Below are positions 1,331 through 52,875 of a DNA stretch of 64,000 nt, piece by piece. Source of the stretch: Bacilli bacterium. Its GTDB lineage: Bacteria; Bacillota_I; Bacilli_A; ML615J-28; CAG-313. The notes beneath the pieces were generated by a model. The model was given only the letters and a program-made list of their open reading frames with translations. It was not told where the DNA came from and made no database searches. The position numbers and the translations under genes are program-made. How positions within the stretch are numbered: position 1 is the first letter of the stretch; each line of letters begins with the position of its first letter. The DNA is taken from assembly GCA_017398545.1 (NCBI GenBank), contig JAFQFT010000021.1:2094-66093 (forward strand), read 5' to 3'.

Positions 1331-3634
1331 TTATGAAATTTTATTTAATTCTTCAATAACTTTATTAGCTAACACTTGCATACCTGAATAATTAGGATGT
1401 GCAGAGTCTACTAAGTGACCTGCAAGTGAAGCATCTGAACAATCAAGAACTTGTAAATTAAAGTCTTTTGCTTTAGTCTTAATTATATCGTTATAAGTTT
1501 TTTGTTCTTCTGCATCATAAAATACTGATGATAATAGAGTCATTAAAATAATTTCTGAATTTGGACAAAGTTGTTGTAAATTTTGAAGCATTTCAGAATA
1601 TCCTTTATCAAACATTTGTGAAGTAACAAATCCACTTGCACAGTCATTTGAACCCATGTAAATTAAAATTACATCAGGAGCTTCTCCATTAATTGTTGTA
1701 TATTCAAGTCTTTCCATATTCTTAGTCGCGTTAATTGAAGTATCAGCAACACAGGAACCAGAATATGAATTATTAACAAACAATGTACCACCCATTTTAT
1801 TAATTACTTGCATCCACCATGTCATATTAACATTAGATACATCAGCAGTAGGGTATGGATAAAAATAACTAAATCCATCTGGAATATAATTTAGATATGT
1901 AGAAATACTATCACCAATAATTGAGAAACTCTTTCCATTGAATCTATTAGAACCAAATTCATATTGACCAGTAATTGTAGTATCTTCAGTAATATTGTAA
2001 TTTATCTTATCCCAACCAATAAATTTATAACCTTCATAAGTTGGTGCAGCAGGATAAATTACGCTACCACCTTTGTGACATTTAGTTGTACTAATAGTTT
2101 CGCCGTCTTTACCAACAAAAGTTACATCACAAAGTTCAATGATATTTGCTTCAGCTTCAGTTACTATAGAAATATTATCAATAGTAGTTTTAATAACAGC
2201 ATTAATAATTAATGCAGGATTTTCTTTACTTGTAGCTGTTAAAATACAATAACCTGCTGAGTTAATTGTAATAGATGAATAAGTTGAAACTGTTGCAATA
2301 GTGGAATCACTTGTTGTCCAATTATATTTAAGAACACTTGTTTCAACACCTGCAGGGAAAATAGGTTGGAATACATAAAGATTACTATTTGAAAGAGGAA
2401 CTTTTTTTATTTCATTAAAATGATATTCCGTTTCTTCTAACTTAATTAAGTTTTGTTTTTCAACCTCTACAAACTTAGCTTGTAAAATATAATCAGCAGT
2501 AGAATCAGCATCAATCATACTATAAGGTGTTAATGAAATTTCATTTAAGAACCAACCTACAAAATAATAACCATCTTTTTCTGGAGTAGGTAGAACAACT
2601 TCTTCACCAAATGTATAAGATGTAGGTGTAAGATTTAATTTTTCTTCACCAAAATAATATTCAATACGACCTTTAATTTTATTACCAACAGCATAAATTT
2701 CTAAATCATCAGTTACTGAAGAGAAATCCTTATCCCAACCAGTAAATTCATAATATTCATCCGATAAAACTTCAGGTGCTGTAGCTGCTTCTTCGTATTT
2801 AACATTTTCAGTTTTAATAACATTACCACTTAAATCATAGAATGTAACAACATATTCATATTTTTCAAACACAGCATGTACCTCAAGATCGCTTGTTACT
2901 TTTTTATAAGAAATATCCCAACCAACAAATTCATAACCTGTTTTTCTAGGTCTTGTTGGAGCAACAGCATTTTTACCATGTTCTACAGTCTTTACTGCGT
3001 GAACTTCACCATCAACATAGAAAGTAACTGTATAAGTTTTAGTGTAAAAAACTGCATTAACAACTAAATTGCTTGTAACATTGTCAAATACTTTATCCCA
3101 ACCAACAAAAGAATAACCCTCTTTTTCTGGAGTTAATCCTACAGCACTTTCTCCATGATTAACTGTTTCTGTTTTTAATACAGTATCACCATCCATAAAT
3201 GTTACAGTATAAGTAAAACAAGAAAAATTTGCATTAACTGTTAAATCACTTTTTACATTGTTAAACTCTTTATCCCAACCAACAAAAGTATAACCCTCTT
3301 TTTCAGGTGTTAAACCAATAGCACTTTCTCCATAATTAACAGTTTCTGTTTTTAATATAGTATTACCATCTTTAAATATTACAGTGTATGTATTAATAGA
3401 AAACTCTGCATTAACTGTTAAATCACTTGTAACATTATCAAACTCTTTATCCCAACCTGTAAAAGTATAACCCTCTTTTTCAGGAATTAGACCTAAGGCA
3501 CTATCGCCTTTTTTTACTTCTTCAGTCTTTAATACAGTATCACCATCCATAAATGTTACTGTATAAGTTTTTTTACAACTTGTTACAAAACATGCAGCAC
3601 ATATTACAAAAATTATAAGTAATGATTTTTTCAT
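1331..3634 (-). CDS. Surface lipoprotein: Listeria-Bacteroides (InlB B-type) repeats + Big_2-like segment + C-terminal SGNH/GDSL hydrolase
   Basis: Lipobox (FVTS|C). About seven ~45-aa repeats of the form YTVTF.DG.TVLKTE.V..G.SA.GL.PEKEGYTF.GWDKEF.NVTSDL. C-terminal SGNH block motifs IIGDSIS, GSNDC and DSAHPN. Confidence 0.75.
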   Translation of the reverse strand: MKKSLLIIFVICAACFVTSCKKTYTVTFMDGDTVLKTEEVKKGDSALGLIPEKEGYTFTGWDKEFDNVTSDLTVNAEFSINTYTVIFKDGNTILKTETVNYGESAIGLTPEKEGYTFVGWDKEFNNVKSDLTVNANFSCFTYTVTFMDGDTVLKTETVNHGESAVGLTPEKEGYSFVGWDKVFDNVTSNLVVNAVFYTKTYTVTFYVDGEVHAVKTVEHGKNAVAPTRPRKTGYEFVGWDISYKKVTSDLEVHAVFEKYEYVVTFYDLSGNVIKTENVKYEEAATAPEVLSDEYYEFTGWDKDFSSVTDDLEIYAVGNKIKGRIEYYFGEEKLNLTPTSYTFGEEVVLPTPEKDGYYFVGWFLNEISLTPYSMIDADSTADYILQAKFVEVEKQNLIKLEETEYHFNEIKKVPLSNSNLYVFQPIFPAGVETSVLKYNWTTSDSTIATVSTYSSITINSAGYCILTATSKENPALIINAVIKTTIDNISIVTEAEANIIELCDVTFVGKDGETISTTKCHKGGSVIYPAAPTYEGYKFIGWDKINYNITEDTTITGQYEFGSNRFNGKSFSIIGDSISTYLNYIPDGFSYFYPYPTADVSNVNMTWWMQVINKMGGTLFVNNSYSGSCVADTSINATKNMERLEYTTINGEAPDVILIYMGSNDCASGFVTSQMFDKGYSEMLQNLQQLCPNSEIILMTLLSSVFYDAEEQKTYNDIIKTKAKDFNLQVLDCSDASLAGHLVDSAHPNYSGMQVLANKVIEELNKIS

Positions 3635-29994: not shown

Positions 29995-30066
29995 GTTTTA
30001 TAAATCTTTATTTTATTTGTGATACAATAATGAAGTAAATTTAAAAAACTAAAAGGGAGCAAAACA

Positions 30067-30750
30067 ATGAATAAGATTTACGAAGGTAAAACTAAAGACG
30101 TTTATAGTTTAGAAAATGGTAACGTTCTATTAAAATTTAAAGATGATTGTACAGGTAAAGATGGTGTGTTTGACCCAGGTGAAAATACTGTTGGTTTAAC
30201 AATTGATGGTATTGGAAAAGAAAACTTAAAAGTATCAATTTATTATTTTGAACTATTAAAACAAGCTGGTATCAAAACTCACTATGTAAACGCAAATATT
30301 GAAGATGCAACAATGGAAGTATTACCTGGTAAAGTATTTGGACATGGTCTAGAAGTTATTTGTAGACTTGTTGCAACAGGTAGTTTTATTCGTCGTTATG
30401 GTGAATATATTAAAGATGGAACACCACTTGAAGGTGGTTACGTTGAATGCACTTTCAAAAATGATGAAAAAGGAGATCCACTAGTAACTAAAGAAGGACT
30501 TGTTGCACTTGGTGTAATGAGCGGTGAACTATTTGATTCGATGAAAGAACAAACATTAAATATCACAAATATAATAGCTAGTGACTTAAAGAAAATTGGT
30601 CTTGATCTTTGGGATATCAAATTTGAATTTGGTTACAACAATGGTGAAGTAATTCTTATTGATGAAATCGCATCAGGCAATATGCGTGTTTATAAAGATG
30701 GTAAGATTGTAGATCCAATTACTTTAACTAAACTAATTTTAAATAGATAA
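30067..30750 (+). CDS. purC: SAICAR synthetase
   Basis: N-terminus [13 protein letters not shown] and family-typical length (227 aa). GGGAG RBS. Divergent from the pur operon. Confidence 0.9.
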
Positions 30751-30769
30751 TTTATATATATTAAAACAT

Positions 30770-30802
30770 AAACTGCTGTATATCAAAATACAGCAGTTTT
30801 TT
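30770..30802. terminator. Bidirectional terminator between purC and toxN-like gene
   Basis: 11-bp stem AACTGCTGTAT/ATACAGCAGTT, with a T-run on plus and an A-rich flank on the other side. Confidence 0.6.
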
Positions 30803-31304
30803 ATATCGCAACTACTTCAGCCTTTACCCACTCATCATATTTTTGTTGTAGTAATAAAAAGTCACAACAAGAATAATTTAAAACATGGTTTTTATTACAA
30901 CCTATTTTATAAATGTTTTGTGCTTTTTGAAGTATTATTTTTTCATTTTTTTGACAAAATTTTAATTCTATCTTTAATAAATATGCATACGCTTGATCCG
31001 TTTTTCGTATGTTTGCAAGCTTCTTAATAGTTACTAAATTAGATGGTACAGGAAACATAAAACAAAATTTAAGTGAAGCTATTGCTCTTCCATTTGTATC
31101 TTCAATAAGCATACTAGTTTGTTTTCTACTAATATCAGATGATATTGGAACAAAATAATCATACTTATCTATTTTCAAAACAATACCACACACAAATTTA
31201 TTATTAGTATTATATTTAATTTGTGGGACTCTAGTATCAAATTTTCTCAAAAAATTTGCATAAGAAATATCTACATCATAAAAATTTAACATTGGTACCT
31301 CCAT
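30801..31304 (-). CDS. toxN: ToxN/AbiQ-family type III toxin endoribonuclease
   Basis: It aligns block by block with ToxN/AbiQ as I remember them: NFYDVD.SYANFLRKFD.RVP, CGIVLKIDKYDYFVPISS, LKFCFMFPV, CDFLLLQQKYDEW. The real start is probably the second ATG at 31292 (MLNFYD...), which has a perfect GGAGG 5 nt upstream. Confidence 0.85.
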   Translation of the reverse strand: MEVPMLNFYDVDISYANFLRKFDTRVPQIKYNTNNKFVCGIVLKIDKYDYFVPISSDISRKQTSMLIEDTNGRAIASLKFCFMFPVPSNLVTIKKLANIRKTDQAYAYLLKIELKFCQKNEKIILQKAQNIYKIGCNKNHVLNYSCCDFLLLQQKYDEWVKAEVVAI

Positions 31305-31326
31305 ATTGATTATAATAATATTTTAT

Positions 31327-31390
31327 AAAAAACAAAAAAAGTCCTACTCATACCTTAGTTTTATTAACAAACTAGAGTATGAATAAGACT
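31327..31390 (-). terminator. Rho-independent terminator/attenuator between repeat array and toxN
   Basis: Minus strand has AGTCTTATTCATAC...GTATGAGTAGGACT (14 bp including 2 G-U pairs), followed by TTTTTTTGTTTTTT. Confidence 0.6.
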
Positions 31391-31487
31391 GTGAGTGTTT
31401 GTTTATTTATAAATAAATTATATCAAATTTTTTAAAAAAAGTAAAGAGAAAAAATAAACATTAAAAATATTAAAATTATAAAATAGA

Positions 31488-31510
31488 CAAAAAAGGTGAC
31501 ATATGTCACC
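31488..31510 (-). terminator. Short terminator hairpin at the 3' end of the repeat array
   Basis: Perfect palindrome GGTGACATATGTCACC followed on the minus strand by TTTTTTG. Its 5' arm overlaps the last repeat. Confidence 0.5.
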
Positions 31511-31630
31511 TCTTGAATTAAAGACCACACTTTCGGTGGTGGGACACCTTGAATTAAGACCACGCTTTCGGTGGTGGGACACCTTGAATTAAGACCACAC
31601 TTTCGGTGGTGGGATACCTTGAATTAAGAA
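31507..31630 (-). ncRNA. toxI: ToxI/antiQ-like antitoxin RNA: ~3.4 head-to-tail repeats of 35 nt
   Basis: The plus-strand unit is CACCTTGAATTAAGACCAC(A/G)CTTTCGGTGGTGGGA. Units at 31545-31579 and 31580-31614 differ by 1 nt. There is also a degenerate 38-nt unit at 31507-31544 and a partial unit at 31615-31630. Each unit can form an ACCAC/GTGGT hairpin. The array lies upstream of toxN on the same strand. Confidence 0.8.
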
Positions 31631-31658
31631 TTCTAATATTAAGAATTCCTACATCTAT

Positions 31659-31687
31659 ATTATAACTAAAAATATTCTAAAAGTCAA
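31659..31687 (-). promoter_or_regulatory. Sigma-70-type promoter of the toxI-toxN unit
   Basis: Minus strand reads TTGACT (31682-31687), 17-nt spacer, TATAAT (31659-31664), immediately upstream of the repeat array. Confidence 0.65.
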
Positions 31688-31820
31688 TAGTTTTATTAAA
31701 TATTTTATTAAAGAATTCTATAATATTTTAGTTACACTAATAGTATATGTTAGGGTTTTAAAATTATACCCAATAAAAAATTTTAAAAATAATCTATTTA
31801 ATGTTTTTACTGCATCTTTT

Positions 31821-33074
31821 TTATTCTTCTTTGTAGTTCCAATTAACTATACAATTAACATCTGCCCATTCATTGTCCCAACCATCAGGTTTTGACTCTA
31901 CTTTACAATTAATAACTAAATTTTCAATATTTTTAAAAGCAGTAGGTCCAATTGTAGTTACGCTACTAGGAATTACTATTTCAGATAGTGATGTACAAGC
32001 AGAGAAACATAATTGACCAATACTTTGTAATCCTTCGTGTAATATAACTTGTTTTAAATTCTTACAAGAATTAAAAGCATAATTTTCTAAAATTTCACAG
32101 TTTGCAGGAATCTCAATACTTTCTAAATTGCTACATCCTATAAATGCACCACCTTCTATCTTTTTTACTGTAGAAGGAATATTAATTTGTTTAATACCAG
32201 ACCCGTCAAAACATGCTTTCGGAATAACACTTATACCTTCTGGTAAAGTTAATTTTTCCAACTTCCTAGTGTTTAAAAAAGAAAACTCACCCAATTCTTT
32301 AACAGTATTTGGAATTTCTAATTTTTCAAGATTTTTACAATATAAAAAAGCAGATTCTCCAATTTTTGTTATACCTTCTGGCAGTGTAACTTCTTTAAGG
32401 CTTTCACATGAATTAAATAATTTATCTTCTATTACAGTTAATCCTTTTGGTAATTCAACTCTCTCTAGACTACCACAATGTTCAAATGCACCACTTCCAA
32501 TTTTTTTAACATTATCTGCAATTTTAATTGTTTTAATCCAGTAATGATATCTAAAAGCATTAGATGCGATCTCAACTATTGGTAAACCTTCATATTCTAA
32601 TCCTATTAACAACTCAGTTGACGAACTCTCATATGCTCCAACAACAATATATCCATCACATGCTTCATTTAATTCATATACCAGTTCATAAGAAGAAGTT
32701 AATTTAGGCGAAACACCTTGTTCTTGAACAATATTATTACATTTCGAACACTTGATTTCATCATAAATACCTTCTTCATAAAAAGTAGCTGGGATACCTT
32801 TTTTAGTTACTACTTCTTCATGTTCTTCTAATTCTAATTCTTTTGTTTCTTTGTAACTACATCCTGTGCACTTTCTTTGTTTAGTCCCCGGAACAATACA
32901 AGTTGATTCTTTTATAACTGTCCATTCATTTAACTTATGTTTTTCTTTGTTTATAATTTCTCCATTTTCACTTACTTCCCAGTGATATGTATCATCATGC
33001 TTAATGTTACTGTTTGTACAAGAATTAAGGCATAATATCATTATAAAAATAAAAATATAATAAAATCTTTTCAT
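31821..33074 (-). CDS. Lipoprotein with N-terminal Cys-rich modules and BspA-type leucine-rich repeats
   Basis: Lipobox (CLNS|C). Modules EWTVIKESTC...CTGC and CSKC. C-terminal ~23-aa repeats (I...AF..C..L..I.IP..V..IG..AF) typical of BspA-like LRR. Confidence 0.7.
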   Translation of the reverse strand: MKRFYYIFIFIMILCLNSCTNSNIKHDDTYHWEVSENGEIINKEKHKLNEWTVIKESTCIVPGTKQRKCTGCSYKETKELELEEHEEVVTKKGIPATFYEEGIYDEIKCSKCNNIVQEQGVSPKLTSSYELVYELNEACDGYIVVGAYESSSTELLIGLEYEGLPIVEIASNAFRYHYWIKTIKIADNVKKIGSGAFEHCGSLERVELPKGLTVIEDKLFNSCESLKEVTLPEGITKIGESAFLYCKNLEKLEIPNTVKELGEFSFLNTRKLEKLTLPEGISVIPKACFDGSGIKQINIPSTVKKIEGGAFIGCSNLESIEIPANCEILENYAFNSCKNLKQVILHEGLQSIGQLCFSACTSLSEIVIPSSVTTIGPTAFKNIENLVINCKVESKPDGWDNEWADVNCIVNWNYKEE

Positions 33075-33084
33075 ATAAACTCCT

Positions 33085-33576
33085 TTAACTTATTTTCTTA
33101 TAAATTTTATTAGATACATCTACAATATCAAAATAATATTTAATATCTGTTTCTTCATATTCATTATCACCATAAAAAGGACTTGGATATGAATACCAAT
33201 AATAAATAGATTTTTCACTTCCTAAATAAAAGTATGAACGATAACCAATCGTATTTTTCCCCTCAGCTATTTTCGCATAACATAATCTCACATTTTTCTT
33301 GAAAAAATCCTTATCTTCACTTTGATTACTTGCATCTATATCTTTACTTGATACATTTCCATAAAATAAAATATAATCCTCATAATTATCAAAAACTATA
33401 TACTTACCTTTACTTTGAATATTATATTTTTTACATAAATAATCATATTGTTCTTTAGTAACTTCACATGATTCGCTCTCTAACCCGATTTGTCCTGATT
33501 GTCTATCAAAATAACTACAACTACATAATACAAGACTATATGTTAATAATACAACAAAGAATAATAATTTTCTCAT
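33085..33576 (-). CDS. Hypothetical lipoprotein
   Basis: Signal peptide plus lipobox (LVL|C). No other motif. Confidence 0.45.
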   Translation of the reverse strand: MRKLLFFVVLLTYSLVLCSCSYFDRQSGQIGLESESCEVTKEQYDYLCKKYNIQSKGKYIVFDNYEDYILFYGNVSSKDIDASNQSEDKDFFKKNVRLCYAKIAEGKNTIGYRSYFYLGSEKSIYYWYSYPSPFYGDNEYEETDIKYYFDIVDVSNKIYKKIS

Positions 33577-33697
33577 TTAATTTCTCCCTTAATGATTTAT
33601 TTATAACTGCTTATATTATACATAATATAATTTGTTTTGTCAATGTATAAAAACAATCAAAACTTAAACGAATTTTTATATTATCAAAATAAAAAAT

Positions 33698-33727
33698 ATG
33701 AATCGTTTTACTATAAAAACGATTCAT
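33698..33727. terminator. Bidirectional hairpin terminator
   Basis: 12-bp stem ATGAATCGTTTT/AAAACGATTCAT, flanked by A-run and T-run. Lies downstream of the 33745-34884 gene. Confidence 0.6.
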
Positions 33728-33744
33728 TTATTTTTAATTAAAAT

Positions 33745-34884
33745 TTACTTATTTACAATTAATTCTAATATTTTTTTAAAATGTTGCATTATCTCGAAAT
33801 TTAAAAGCTCATATAAATCATTTTTTCTTTTCTTAGATAAGAATTTATCTAATAAAATTATAATTGTAGAATATTCTTCATCTAACTGATCAACTTCTAA
33901 TTCCTTATAAAAATCATTATATTTCGTTAAATCTTTTTCAATTATCCCTTTTTCATGTAATGCTACTAATAAACACAATATTATAGTTAATGTTAAAGAA
34001 TCATAACCACTATATCTTTTCAATATATTATCATATTCTTTTTTACCAAGCGTTGAAATTGCTAAAAACTTATTACAAGTGTCTATTAAAAAGTCATTAT
34101 TTAAAGATAAAGATTCTAAAGATTTTAATTGTTTAAAAGCAATAATATAACATTCTTCAAAATTACCTACATGGATTAATGAACTCATAATTGTATTATT
34201 TAAATATAAAATTCTATTTACATTACCATCTTGATATAATTTTTCTTTACATTTTTCAGCAAAAAACAATGTTTCAATATAGCGCTTATTCATATAACTT
34301 CTACTAGCTAAGATAAAATAAGCTGGTGCGTTATTATAGTTTTTAACCCAACAATCTTCTTTAATATTTTTTTCAAAACTTAAATATATTAATTCATATA
34401 CTTCTAATAATGAATTATTAAAAAACAAAGTATACATTTTTATATGATTAAATAGTTGTTCATTACTAGAGATAATTACTGATATACTATCATTTGAACT
34501 AATTTTTAAAAATAATTTTGCAAGTTCTAATATTGGATAAATTATATAATTTTCTTTTAATAAATTTTCTATAGTTTCAAGATATAAATCATACGAATTA
34601 TAGTTTTTATAATACATATCATAATATATATTATTAAACAAGTCTTCTATTTTATCAATTAGCTTTATAGAAGGAACCTTTAGTGAAAACATATTAGCTA
34701 AAGATTTAATTATCTTACTACCGATTTTACATTCACTTTTTCTGCATTGTCTATATGTACTTGGAGTAATGTTATTATCTAGTAAGAAATTCTCCTTTTT
34801 TATTTCTTTTTCTTTAAAATAAATATCAAAAAAATTAAAATAAATTTGTGTTAACTTATAATTTGACAAATCAATTTTTTTCAT
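33745..34884 (-). CDS. Putative regulator with degenerate N-terminal HTH and helical-repeat (TPR/RNPP-like) C-domain
   Basis: The segment ITPSTYRQCRKSECKIGSKIIKSLANMFSL resembles an XRE-type HTH. The remaining ~300 aa are helical-repeat-like. This is similarity by eye only. Confidence 0.3.
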   Translation of the reverse strand: MKKIDLSNYKLTQIYFNFFDIYFKEKEIKKENFLLDNNITPSTYRQCRKSECKIGSKIIKSLANMFSLKVPSIKLIDKIEDLFNNIYYDMYYKNYNSYDLYLETIENLLKENYIIYPILELAKLFLKISSNDSISVIISSNEQLFNHIKMYTLFFNNSLLEVYELIYLSFEKNIKEDCWVKNYNNAPAYFILASRSYMNKRYIETLFFAEKCKEKLYQDGNVNRILYLNNTIMSSLIHVGNFEECYIIAFKQLKSLESLSLNNDFLIDTCNKFLAISTLGKKEYDNILKRYSGYDSLTLTIILCLLVALHEKGIIEKDLTKYNDFYKELEVDQLDEEYSTIIILLDKFLSKKRKNDLYELLNFEIMQHFKKILELIVNK

Positions 34885-34915
34885 ATATATGGTTTCCTCC
34901 TATAAACAATTATTT

Positions 34916-52673: not shown

Positions 52674-52700
52674 AATTTCTCCTTTCAAAACTAAAAAATG

Positions 52701-52817
52701 GTAAATAGAATCCACCCGTTATATTTGACAGACTCCACCTAAAATTATTTAACTGTATAAAAAACAAAAACGAGTAGATAGACTCCACCCGTTATATTTG
52801 ACAGACTCCACCTAAAA
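52701..52817 (-). repeat. Two 44-nt direct repeats (73-nt period) in the leader of the Na/Pi transporter gene
   Basis: 52701-52744 and 52774-52817 differ at 2 positions. Each contains two copies of GA(C/A)TCCACC (minus strand: GGTGGAGTC). Confidence 0.7.
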
Positions 52818-52829
52818 AACTATTTAATT

Positions 52830-52875
52830 ATAAAATAAAAAGAGACTCCTACCTAACTAATTAGGTAAAAGTCTC
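52830..52875 (-). terminator. Terminator hairpin (expression platform of the Mn riboswitch)
   Basis: Minus strand has GAGACTTTTACCTAA-TTAG-TTAGGTAGGAGTCTC (15 bp including G-U pairs), followed by TTTTTATTTTAT. Its 5' arm is the 3' strand of the riboswitch P1. Confidence 0.6.

Follow-up and report, generated by a model that had tools for sequence, protein, structure and literature searches.

A locus within the 64,000-nucleotide stretch of DNA that was analysed (the window), from the chromosome of a gut Erysipelotrichaceae bacterium, is best explained, with high probability, as a chromosomal type III toxin–antitoxin module of the ToxIN (ToxN/AbiQ) family, including the mechanism assigned to it by homology, and adds a new member to this known family. 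Four in silico hallmarks of a type III ToxIN locus were found: a toxin of ToxN/AbiQ family and fold, a same-strand upstream array of short direct repeats (about 31–46 nt by definition of the family), a terminator ahead of the toxin gene, and repeat units able to form a pseudoknot. All of the elements lie on the (-) strand, in the order promoter (P1), repeats, first terminator (T1), second promoter-like site (P2), second terminator (T2), GGAGG ribosome-binding site (RBS), and an ORF of 163 amino acids. A first-pass annotation of the sequence had proposed a complete ToxIN/AbiQ-like type III module here, and the elements that it described are all present, with the profile and fold of the toxin, the same-strand array, the intervening terminator, and a covarying pseudoknot bearing out the proposal. 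The module is flanked by purC on one side and by a gene for a BspA-type LRR lipoprotein on the other, and no mobile-element genes were identified by Pfam among the neighbouring ORFs (~19.7 to 39.6 kb), in agreement with the earlier description of the surroundings. A bidirectional terminator hairpin found by terminator scan (30,770..30,799, both strands) is common to toxN and the convergent purC. The sole Rfam match in the whole window at the gathering threshold was a ZTP riboswitch.

The toxin gene

The product of toxN (30,801..31,292, (-) strand, stop included) is a predicted endoribonuclease toxin of the ToxN/AbiQ family, as had been suggested from its sequence. The HMM search proposed at that stage matched Pfam PF13958 (ToxN_toxin) over profile positions 1–159 of 159 (E = 2.4e-34; 119 bits against a cutoff of 25); the AbiQ profile of PADLOC also matched (2.1e-27), and no NCBIfam model did. 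PDB sequence matches were limited to ToxN/AbiQ proteins (4ato, 7d8o, 2xd0, and 4glk). When an AlphaFold2 model of the toxin (pLDDT 92.4) was compared with known structures using Foldseek, the same four entries were recovered, with TM scores of 0.85 for 4ATO, 0.80 for 4GLK, 0.75 for 7D8O, and 0.74 for 2XD0. Membership of CptN/TenpN was supported neither by a Pfam scan at E ≤ 1, which returned ToxN_toxin only, nor by the model, for which the next Foldseek match after ToxN/AbiQ was CptN (4RMO) at a TM of only 0.46.

Residues K32, S51, and S52 of the toxin align with the catalytic K33, T52, and S53 of ToxN (named in PMC8860590) and are invariant or nearly so among relatives. The alignment is gapped around the equivalent of catalytic K55, leaving its placement ambiguous, with R56 and K57 of the toxin nearby. 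The start codon was assigned to the ATG at 31,292, 5 nt after the GGAGG RBS (31,298..31,302, (-) strand; invariant in relatives), which gives 163 amino acids as in all homologues; the mechanical ORF start at 31,304 was dropped on the basis of this spacing and of homologue length. The ORF is full length and carries every invariant family residue, and dN/dS among alleles is ~0.3; the gene is therefore under purifying selection. Homologues with more than 40% identity are all from metagenomes, and the closest annotated ToxN found, at 37–38% identity, is encoded on a 3.8-kb plasmid of E. faecium.

The antitoxin array and its pseudoknot

The promoter of the antitoxin array, P1 (31,659..31,687, (-) strand), is the TTGACT-17 nt-TATAAT sequence already noted upstream of the repeats; a promoter scan recovered it with 11 of 12 positions, and its mean pairwise identity is 0.93–0.94 among diverged alleles (n = 4). 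Directly 5′ of the first repeat is a leader hairpin with two GAATTCTT copies (31,625..31,651, (-) strand), identified by RNA folding and as direct repeat D8 and kept in relatives. The toxI array itself (31,512..31,629, (-) strand) was detected by TRF with a period of 35, 3.3 copies, 95% matches, and a score of 213, as one of four arrays in the window scoring at least 80, and also as repeat families D1 and D3 and by covariance-model hits. The three copies of its 24-nt core are the only ones in the window (0 expected from shuffles). Earlier the array had been read as two near-identical units, a degenerate 38-nt unit, and a partial unit; the units are instead three near-identical full copies at 31,627–31,593 (35 nt), 31,592–31,558 (35 nt), and 31,557–31,522 (36 nt), with no spacers, followed by a partial unit of 10–11 nt (31,521–31,512). 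Four copies of the junction motif UCUU(U)AAUUCAAG are present in the array, so that the three full units are bounded on both sides. Directly 3′ of the array is T1 (31,485..31,514, (-) strand), consisting of AAGAGGUGACAUAUGUCACCUUUU and a U-run, which was found by terminator scan (31,491..31,514) and by RNA folding; it has a stem of 10 bp followed by the T-run, and is conserved at ~0.8 among alleles.

Comparable arrays (34–42 nt, 2–4 copies) lie on the same strand just upstream of toxN in 50 of the 63 genomic relatives, and a covariance model found five more, bringing the count to at least 55. This model gave 94 hits in the 366 kb searched, all of them directly upstream of toxN and on its strand. 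Unit length ranges from 35 to 38 nt in close relatives.

Covariation was tested on 28 unit consensi and on 84 distinct real copies, and the toxI units covary as a predicted H-type pseudoknot, like ToxI, with both helices supported. In unit 3 (core at 31,525..31,548, (-) strand), helix 1 is formed by pairing of GGUG (31,548–31,545) with CACC (31,538–31,535) and helix 2 by pairing of CCAC (31,542–31,539) with GUGG (31,528–31,525), and the same core is found in units 1 and 2. Across the 84 distinct copies, 89% of cells are paired in this register, compared with 33–47% in controls in which the partner was slid by 1–2 columns or by +3, and 72% at −3; cells with a double change number 115, against 42 in shuffles. 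With loops of 2, 0, and 6 nt, the window units conform to Group I ToxI as published (PMC3401426). The ACCAC/GUGGU hairpin proposed in the first-pass annotation can be drawn in the window units but is not conserved: its register pairs in 44% of cells in relatives, equal to the slid controls, and it was rejected.

In principle the repeats might not be an RNA antitoxin at all but, for example, iterons bound by a protein, a degenerate array of CRISPR type, or a tandem duplication that arose by chance. A 54-amino acid mechanical ORF does overlap the array, and nothing specific favours such a reading; the lack of spacers, the position and strand fixed relative to toxN in at least 55 of 63 relatives, the compensatory changes that keep the RNA pseudoknot, and the promoter upstream and terminator downstream all count against it, and its probability is negligible. 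It was also considered whether the locus has decayed and is now inactive, its toxin no longer toxic or its repeats no longer functional, given that some relatives seem to have as few as 1.3 toxI copies (L071). These low copy numbers are from metagenome contigs and may reflect collapsed assemblies. The repeats in the window are 95% identical to each other and keep both helices, the promoters, terminators, and RBS are conserved, and the intact toxin ORF, its selection, and its confidently modelled fold are not those expected of a remnant, which makes decay highly improbable.

Comparison with the known toxI families, as suggested by the first-pass annotation, gave no significant sequence match: the similarity of the toxI unit to ToxI_Pa, antiQ, and ToxI_Bt was not above shuffled controls, and at E ≤ 0.01 a covariance model built from the clade matched neither these nor the array on the E. 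faecium plasmid. The Rfam ToxI model (RF02519) gave no match in the 30,000–33,000 region even at E ≤ 10. This miss says little, because the model is specific to the B. thuringiensis type; when tested on characterised arrays it matches pAW63 only, and not ToxI_Pa or antiQ.

The pECA1039, pSRQ900, and pAW63 loci were located by tblastn with PDB sequences and read directly. By both structure and sequence, the window toxin is matched best by that of ToxIN_Bt of B. thuringiensis pAW63 (4ATO; E = 7e-13). This system has a similar layout, in which a promoter and about three short repeats precede a terminator and toxN, and is likewise from a Bacillota host, but it is plasmid-borne, shares 28% protein identity, has a 34-nt unit of different sequence (from which the Rfam model that misses the window was built), and carries only one terminator, its array and toxN lying about 60 nt apart. 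The toxins of ToxIN_Pa (Pectobacterium atrosepticum pECA1039, 2XDB/2XDD) and ToxIN_Ec (7D8O) are of the same family and fold as the window toxin (TM 0.74–0.75). In register, ToxI_Pa and the window unit have in common an AUUCA 5′ tail, an (A)GGUG/(C/U)ACC helix 1, a helix 2 of 4 bp, and 'AAGUG' preceding helix 2b, although the overall identity of about 21/36 is not above shuffled controls. ToxIN_Pa differs in being plasmid-borne in a Gammaproteobacterium, in its 24% protein identity, in its single promoter and single terminator, and in having 5.6 copies of 36 nt rather than 3.3 copies of 35–36 nt. RefSeq annotates a 'hypothetical protein' across the pECA1039 ToxI repeats. AbiQ/antiQ of Lactococcus lactis pSRQ900 (4GLK) has 2.9 copies compared with 3.3, and its catalytic Ser51 aligns with S51 of the window toxin; in addition to the profile match above, it shares 25% protein identity and, among the four PDB entries matched by sequence, gives the poorest E value (3e-5). 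Its unit length of 35 nt, to which the first-pass annotation had drawn attention, is indeed equal to that in the window, but the weight placed on it was overstated: the sequences are unrelated and close relatives vary in length, and the common length is therefore coincidental. Chromosomal toxIN loci of Firmicutes have been catalogued previously, including those of the Erysipelotrichales Coprobacillus sp. 29_1 and Clostridium sp. HGF2 (Blower et al. 2012); as compared by description, these are the same kind of locus from the same host group, recognised by an array, a terminator, and a ToxN homologue.

Transcription and processing of the module, its cleavage site, toxicity and inhibition of the toxin, and phage defence can be predicted by homology with ToxIN_Pa, ToxIN_Bt, ToxIN_Ec, and AbiQ. 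P1 would give a short precursor RNA containing the three full 35–36-nt toxI units, with most transcripts ending at T1. The ToxN endoribonuclease would then cleave the precursor at the A/U-rich unit junctions, probably within UCUUA↓AUUC as judged by alignment with ToxI_Pa. The resulting junction, UUA↓AU, would differ from (G)AA↓AU in ToxI_Pa and from the AA↓AU, A↓AAAA, and A↓AAA sites of characterised toxins (PMC5086642). Each freed unit is expected to adopt a small H-type pseudoknot whose tails stay single-stranded and to assemble head-to-tail with ToxN into a closed, inactive protein–RNA complex. Should the supply of toxI collapse, e.g. when a phage shuts off host transcription, unbound ToxN would cut cellular and phage RNAs, leading to cell arrest or death (abortive infection) or to stabilisation of the locus.

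A conserved promoter–leader–terminator cassette upstream of toxN

Two terminator hairpins and a second possible promoter (TG-n-TATAAT) between them had been proposed in the interval between the repeats and the toxin RBS, and both hairpins and the promoter-like sequence are present. The promoter-like site P2 (31,417..31,445, (-) strand) reads TTTACT-17 nt-TATAAT, with a TG-n extended −10 (10 of 12 positions plus TG by scan). It is followed by a leader and T2 (31,326..31,412, (-) strand), comprising A/C-rich AUAAAUAAACAAACACUCAC, a hairpin, and U7GU6, recognised by folding and conservation. The T2 hairpin (31,390–31,340) has 21 bp, a folding energy of −28.2 kcal/mol, and z = −7.2, with the U7GU6 run at 31,339–31,326; T2 is missing from the output of a simple terminator scan. 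P2, leader, and T2 form a unit of ~120 nt in which a conserved A/C-rich single strand precedes the 21-bp terminator hairpin. In an alignment of six contexts, the limits of conservation run exactly from promoter to terminator, and the P2 hexamers are invariant whereas the spacer varies. Mean identity of the cassette is 0.93–0.96 among diverged alleles, compared with 0.26–0.61 for the adjoining spacers. The argument that the cassette is constrained because it is more conserved than toxN is undercut by flanks that are 99–100% identical between the window and a second locus (L065), and it now rests on the synonymous divergence of toxN together with the decayed spacers on both sides. A small peptide encoded in the leader was rejected, the frame shifting with the length of the U-run and having no RBS.

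On other contigs the cassette was found upstream of a YhcG/DUF1016 (PDDEXK nuclease) gene in five loci (L072 and L077–L080) and upstream of an SLFN_AlbA_2/HATPase_c_4 (Schlafen/AlbA_2) gene in one (L073). It is not tied to the YhcG gene family, as homologues 81–82% identical occur in other contexts without it. No match to the cassette was found in viral contigs, BLAST against plasmids and phages returned short promoter-like fragments only, and no second copy was found in the window or in the other loci then compared. The Rfam search of 30,000–33,000 at E ≤ 10 likewise returned nothing on it. The cassette is without counterpart in more distant relatives and in characterised ToxIN loci, which when read directly have one terminator and only 42–60 nt between array and toxN. 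We know of no published locus in which a second promoter–terminator unit separates toxN from toxI. ToxIN loci characteristically have one promoter (PMC5086642); against this bicistronic arrangement, the window has P1 plus the conserved promoter-like P2 and T2 between toxI and toxN.

Because the cassette separates toxN from T1, the toxin is probably transcribed mainly from its own promoter, that is, from P2 through the attenuator. The earlier suggestion that P2 could uncouple expression of toxin and antitoxin is strengthened by the conservation of P2 and the following hairpin as a unit and by their recurrence before other genes. As predicted from sequence, the P2/T2 arrangement may keep basal toxin low and provide separate regulation of the toxin. 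A promoter driving toxN without toxI would put the cell at risk, and P2 may therefore be weak or may only make a short RNA.

It is also possible, although we regard it as somewhat doubtful, that the cassette is unrelated to toxN regulation, being either a small-RNA gene in its own right or a 'mobile promoter' that spread and inserted between toxI and toxN, with toxN expressed only by read-through from P1 as in a canonical ToxIN. Its presence before unrelated genes, the YhcG homologues that lack it, and its promoter-to-terminator limits, as expected of a stand-alone transcription unit, are in keeping with this. Read-through from P1 would, however, have to cross two terminators, one of them the 21-bp hairpin, and the cassette is retained in all diverged toxIN alleles where the spacers on both sides have decayed. 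In L072 and L077, moreover, only 6–8 nt separate the end of the cassette from the RBS of the downstream gene, too little to accommodate a further promoter for that gene. For the cassette, a possible analogy, as a concept only, is provided by structured non-coding RNAs that precede Abi toxins, e.g. RCd22 and, for AbiF of C. difficile, the abiF motif, in which a short terminated RNA directly upstream controls a toxic defence gene in cis and in trans (10.1101/2025.04.15.648962). The cassette has no sequence or Rfam similarity to these, and it precedes three unrelated protein families.

Allele divergence and role of the locus

The module occupies the same site across strains in which purC differs by up to about 6%. 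Alleles of toxIN are only ~84% identical between strains whose flanks are 99–100% identical, with a dS of 0.45 for toxN compared with 0.02 for purC, and they do not track host background. Divergence so far above that of the flanks is typical of parasite-driven diversification or frequent exchange.

The module could be a genuine ToxIN pair and yet act chiefly in selfish addiction, in stabilisation of its locus, or as an RNase of the stress response, rather than as an anti-phage abortive infection (Abi) system, and we give this a modest chance of being correct. The locus is chromosomal and beside housekeeping purine genes, with no neighbouring defence island or mobile element, and is retained at the same site across strains; some ToxIN-family systems have not been seen to act against phages, and retention of plasmids is promoted by several (PMC5086642). 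On the other hand, divergence of the alleles greatly exceeds that of their flanks and does not follow host background, ToxIN_Pa, AbiQ, and TenpIN are proven Abi systems (PMC5086642), and both roles can coexist.

A further reading of the cassette and of the alleles is speculative, and we hold it with low confidence: a portable cassette would drive toxN as an undescribed cis-regulatory RNA and, separately, near-identical strains would exchange diverged toxI/toxN pairs at one fixed chromosomal site. In that case toxN would not simply be the promoter-distal half of a toxI–toxN operon, and the cassette would attenuate conditionally, or would be an RNA with an additional action on the protein. [quoted passage not shown] Exchange of allele pairs could stem from phage-encoded antitoxin mimics.

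With this locus, an uncultured gut Erysipelotrichaceae contributes a well-supported ToxIN module on its chromosome, and a clade of at least 55 loci is delineated, mostly from Clostridia/Bacillota MAGs, whose ToxI units follow one pseudoknot plan. These units escape both the Rfam ToxI model and sequence comparison with characterised antitoxins, which makes the clade useful for annotation. The near-identical flanks around deeply diverged toxIN alleles offer a convenient natural system in which to study how cognate toxin–RNA pairs diversify. If P2 and the attenuator are active, separate transcription of toxin and RNA antitoxin would be possible in a type III system, and one leader cassette would be reused before several toxic genes.

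Layout of the toxIN locus and its toxin

Every element of the toxIN module is on the minus strand; the module is bounded by the stop codons of two genes, one for a BspA-type LRR lipoprotein (31821) and the other purC (30750), which is convergent with toxN. A near-consensus sigma-70 promoter, P1 (TTGACT-17-TATAAT, 31687..31659, 11 of 12 positions matching), is followed by the head-to-tail toxI array found by TRF (31629..31512), by T1 from a terminator scan (31514..31491), and by an AT-rich spacer. The promoter scan also placed a promoter-like site with an extended -10, P2 (TTTACT-17-TGaTATAAT, 31445..31417), which leads into an A/C-rich stretch and T2, a 21-bp hairpin (31390..31340; -28.2 kcal/mol, z = -7.2) followed by U7GU6. 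A GGAGG site, read from the sequence, lies 5 nt 5' of the toxN ATG (31292, placed by homologue starts), and the ORF ends at 30801. All of the elements proposed in the first-pass annotation were present, including the promoter ahead of the repeats and two terminator hairpins before the toxin RBS, but its description of the array as two good units and a degenerate unit of 38 nt did not hold, as the array consists of three full units (35, 35, and 36 nt) and a partial unit of 10-11 nt. With a TRF score of 213 (period 35, 3.3 copies, 95% matches), it is one of only four tandem arrays scoring at least 80 in the 64-kb window, and its 24-nt core occurs three times as against none in shuffles. The junction motif UCUU(U)AAUUCAAG is present four times, so that both sides of every full unit are bounded.

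Downstream of the P1 start site and ahead of the first toxI unit, RNA folding gave a short, conserved GAATTC-based hairpin with two GAATTCTT copies (31625-31651, minus strand). This hairpin partly covers the first junction motif and may act as a 5' stabiliser or present the first processing site. A mechanical 54-aa ORF overlies the window repeats (31418-31582), and a RefSeq "hypothetical protein" CDS runs across the experimentally proven ToxI array of pECA1039 (L074, 357-578; NC_011767.1 1714-1935).

The toxin homologues are all 163 aa long and start at the second ATG; the mechanical 167-aa ORF begins within the ribosome-binding site. The assignment of this ORF to ToxN/AbiQ was borne out by profile searches against Pfam (PF13958, E=2.4e-34, whole profile covered) and PADLOC (AbiQ, 2.1e-27). 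The sole PDB sequence matches were to ToxN_Bt (4ato, 7e-13), ToxN_Ec (7d8o), ToxN_Pa (2xd0), and AbiQ (4glk), and an AlphaFold2 model from 34 homologues (pLDDT 92.4) superposed on 4ATO, 4GLK, 7D8O, and 2XD0 with TM scores of 0.85, 0.80, 0.75, and 0.74, against only 0.46 for CptN. Identity is 24-28% to the characterised toxins and 37-38% to the nearest annotated ToxN, from a 3.8-kb E. faecium plasmid. In the alignment, residues K32, S51, and S52 occupy the positions of the catalytic K33, T52, and S53 of ToxN (S51 also that of AbiQ Ser51) and show little or no variation across the clade; the counterpart of K55 is uncertain. A dN/dS of ~0.3 among alleles indicates that toxN is under purifying selection.

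The neighbourhood comprises the purine operon (purF, L, D, H, N, M, E, and purC), a ZMP/ZTP riboswitch (RF01750, 29882-29963, minus strand, 56 bits) ahead of the purE-purM operon, lipoprotein genes, DUF711, and a Cthe_2159-domain protein. Among the neighbouring ORFs (~19.7-39.6 kb) there was no gene for an integrase, a transposase, or another defence function, in agreement with the earlier placement of the module between purC and a lipoprotein gene with no mobile genes nearby. Elsewhere in the window, two tandem 73-nt copies (52694-52835), each containing GGTGGAGTCTGTCAAATATAACGGGTGGA (minus strand), lie just upstream of a minus-strand gene for a 546-aa membrane protein, which by eye we take to resemble a Na/Pi cotransporter. 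The copies matched no Rfam family and may be a duplicated regulatory site. A further tandem repeat (177 nt, 3 copies, 81% matches, 3046-3568) is probably a repeated domain in coding sequence.

The repeat antitoxin in relatives and reference systems

To gather relatives, one genome per species was scanned, yielding 63 loci, the best of which was an Erysipelotrichaceae MAG at 99% identity, a match that shows to which lineage the host belongs. TRF found an array just upstream of toxN in 50 of the 63 (34-42 nt, 2-4 copies). A covariance model made from the unit consensi recovered 94 copies from 366 kb of sequence, all of them directly upstream of toxN and on its strand, and gained five further loci. 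In a single register, the units form two interleaved helices, pairing GGUG with CACC and CCAC with GUGG in the window. Across 28 consensi, 83% of cells were paired, compared with 32-52% when the partners were slid, and 33 double-change cells were seen versus 12 in shuffles, with none of 500 shuffles attaining the observed value. Among 84 distinct real copies the paired fraction of cells was 89%, with 115 double-change cells versus 42 ± 5 in shuffles; the model behind this alignment did not include helix 1, which is nonetheless visible in it (e.g. 51 G-C and 27 A-U at one pair). The unit loops of 2, 0, and 6 nt agree with the Group I ToxI pattern (Blower et al. 2012, PMC3401426). The window repeats are a ToxI-type antitoxin. 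The ACCAC/GUGGU hairpin first suggested for each unit, in the register offered by the CCACCACC repeat, was dropped, as it is not kept in relatives, where 44% of cells are paired, the same as in slid controls.

One toxIN locus (L004, 2439-2600; toxin 54% identical) lies on a contig that binning assigned to Barnesiella intestinihominis (Bacteroidota), and its 38-nt unit is nearly identical to the unit of L065, an Erysipelotrichaceae allele, which reflects either horizontal transfer or mis-binning. Array copy number apparently differs among alleles, with values of 3.3, 2.3, and 1.3 when L071 (2724-2759), L066, and L068 are included, although in short metagenome contigs the repeats may have collapsed or the contig may end within the array.

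The sequences of the reference loci were taken straight from pECA1039 (ToxI_Pa, 36-nt unit, 5.6 copies), pSRQ900 (antiQ, 35 nt, 2.9 copies), and pAW63 (ToxI_Bt, 34 nt, 3.1 copies). Each has one terminator and 42-60 nt from array to toxN, whereas this distance is 220 nt in the window. The window unit can be aligned to that of ToxI_Pa, with an AUUCA tail, an (A)GGUG helix, and "AAGUG" ahead of helix 2b in common, but the identity of ~21/36 is not above shuffled controls. No similarity above such controls was found to antiQ or ToxI_Bt, and the units of close relatives are 35-38 nt; therefore, the 35-nt length shared with antiQ, pointed to in the first-pass annotation, is incidental. The Rfam ToxI model had no match in the window, which is uninformative because, of the reference arrays, it recognises the pAW63 type only. 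ToxI_Pa is cut between AA and AU, the processed unit beginning AUUC, and by register the processing site in the window would fall between UCUUA and AUUC. These data support the interpretation of the module as a complete ToxIN-family type III toxin-antitoxin locus. By homology, ToxN would process the repeat RNA, the pseudoknot RNA would inhibit ToxN, and a transcription shut-off would release the toxin.

The promoter-leader-hairpin cassette before toxN

Relatives at the same site next to purC carry toxins that are only 73-79% identical. A conservation profile (mean identity over four alleles) gave 0.93-0.94 for P1, about 0.8 for T1, 0.26-0.50 for the spacer after T1, 0.93-0.96 from the P2 -10 hexamer to the hairpin, 0.61 for the region before the RBS, and 0.67-0.94 for toxN. 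With a synonymous divergence of toxN among these alleles of 0.38-0.50, a conserved island flanked by two decayed spacers points to P2, the leader, and T2 being under constraint. In more distant relatives the array ends 50-100 nt from toxN, and an nhmmer profile of the cassette (P2, A/C-rich leader, and T2 with its U-run) run on all loci then collected matched in close relatives and contigs L072 and L073 only, so the cassette is clade-specific.

A metagenome scan using both hairpin arms as query found the cassette, from -35 hexamer to U-run, upstream of other genes without toxI or toxN. It precedes a YhcG/DUF1016 PDDEXK nuclease gene in L072 (878-997), a YhcG/DUF1016 gene in four contigs of the same species (L077-L080, 2364-2483), and a Schlafen-AlbA_2/HATPase_c_4/HTH gene in L073 (387-507). 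The ~120-nt cassette (window copy 31326-31445, minus strand) can thus be seen before three unrelated genes (toxN, YhcG/DUF1016, and SLFN_AlbA_2/HATPase_c_4). The alignment shows no variation in either hexamer, the TG, AAACAAACACYC, or the lower stem; the promoter spacer and the region round the expected start site are variable. In L072 and L077 the RBS of the next gene lies 6-8 nt after the U-run, so the cassette must supply the promoter and leader of that gene. It was absent upstream of YhcG homologues 81-82% identical in other contexts, and searches of Rfam, plasmids, phages, and viral contigs yielded no counterpart.

We read the cassette as a portable promoter, leader, and attenuator unit from which toxN is probably transcribed; it may represent a small RNA, a "mobile promoter," or an attenuator not yet described. 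A single-promoter operon has been called characteristic of these systems (PMC5086642), from which a toxN driven from the cassette would depart.

Allelic divergence at the purC site

Between the window and L065, the LRR gene, purC, purE, and purM are 99-100% identical, but across 1.05 kb (~31845 to ~30790) identity drops to just 72-91%, with abrupt boundaries (purC dS 0.02; toxN dS 0.45, dN 0.14). A chimeric assembly is unlikely because the L065 allele recurs, between the same flanks, in L066, which derives from an independent sample. In L001, toxN is 99% identical to that of the window and the flanks just 95-97%, and about 3.1 kb directly upstream of toxIN in the window (31801-34913) is missing. 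This segment, also absent from L071 and partly from L070, holds the LRR lipoprotein gene and ORFs of 163 and 379 aa, neither with a Pfam match; the site adjoining toxIN is an indel hotspot. The L065/L066 and L001 patterns indicate that toxIN alleles are decoupled from host background, with old alleles either swapped or retained at one fixed position. The repeats vary along with the toxin (GGUCUUA versus GGGGCUUUA 3' tail; 35-nt versus 37-nt units). By analogy, a plausible driver would be selection by phages carrying antitoxin mimics, as is reportedly known for ToxIN_Pa.

ToxIN loci have previously been catalogued in Firmicutes chromosomes, Erysipelotrichales included (Blower et al. 2012), and the core finding therefore adds a member to the known ToxIN family. 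Two features are not ordinary: a second, conserved promoter-attenuator cassette, and the deep divergence of toxIN alleles between near-identical strains.
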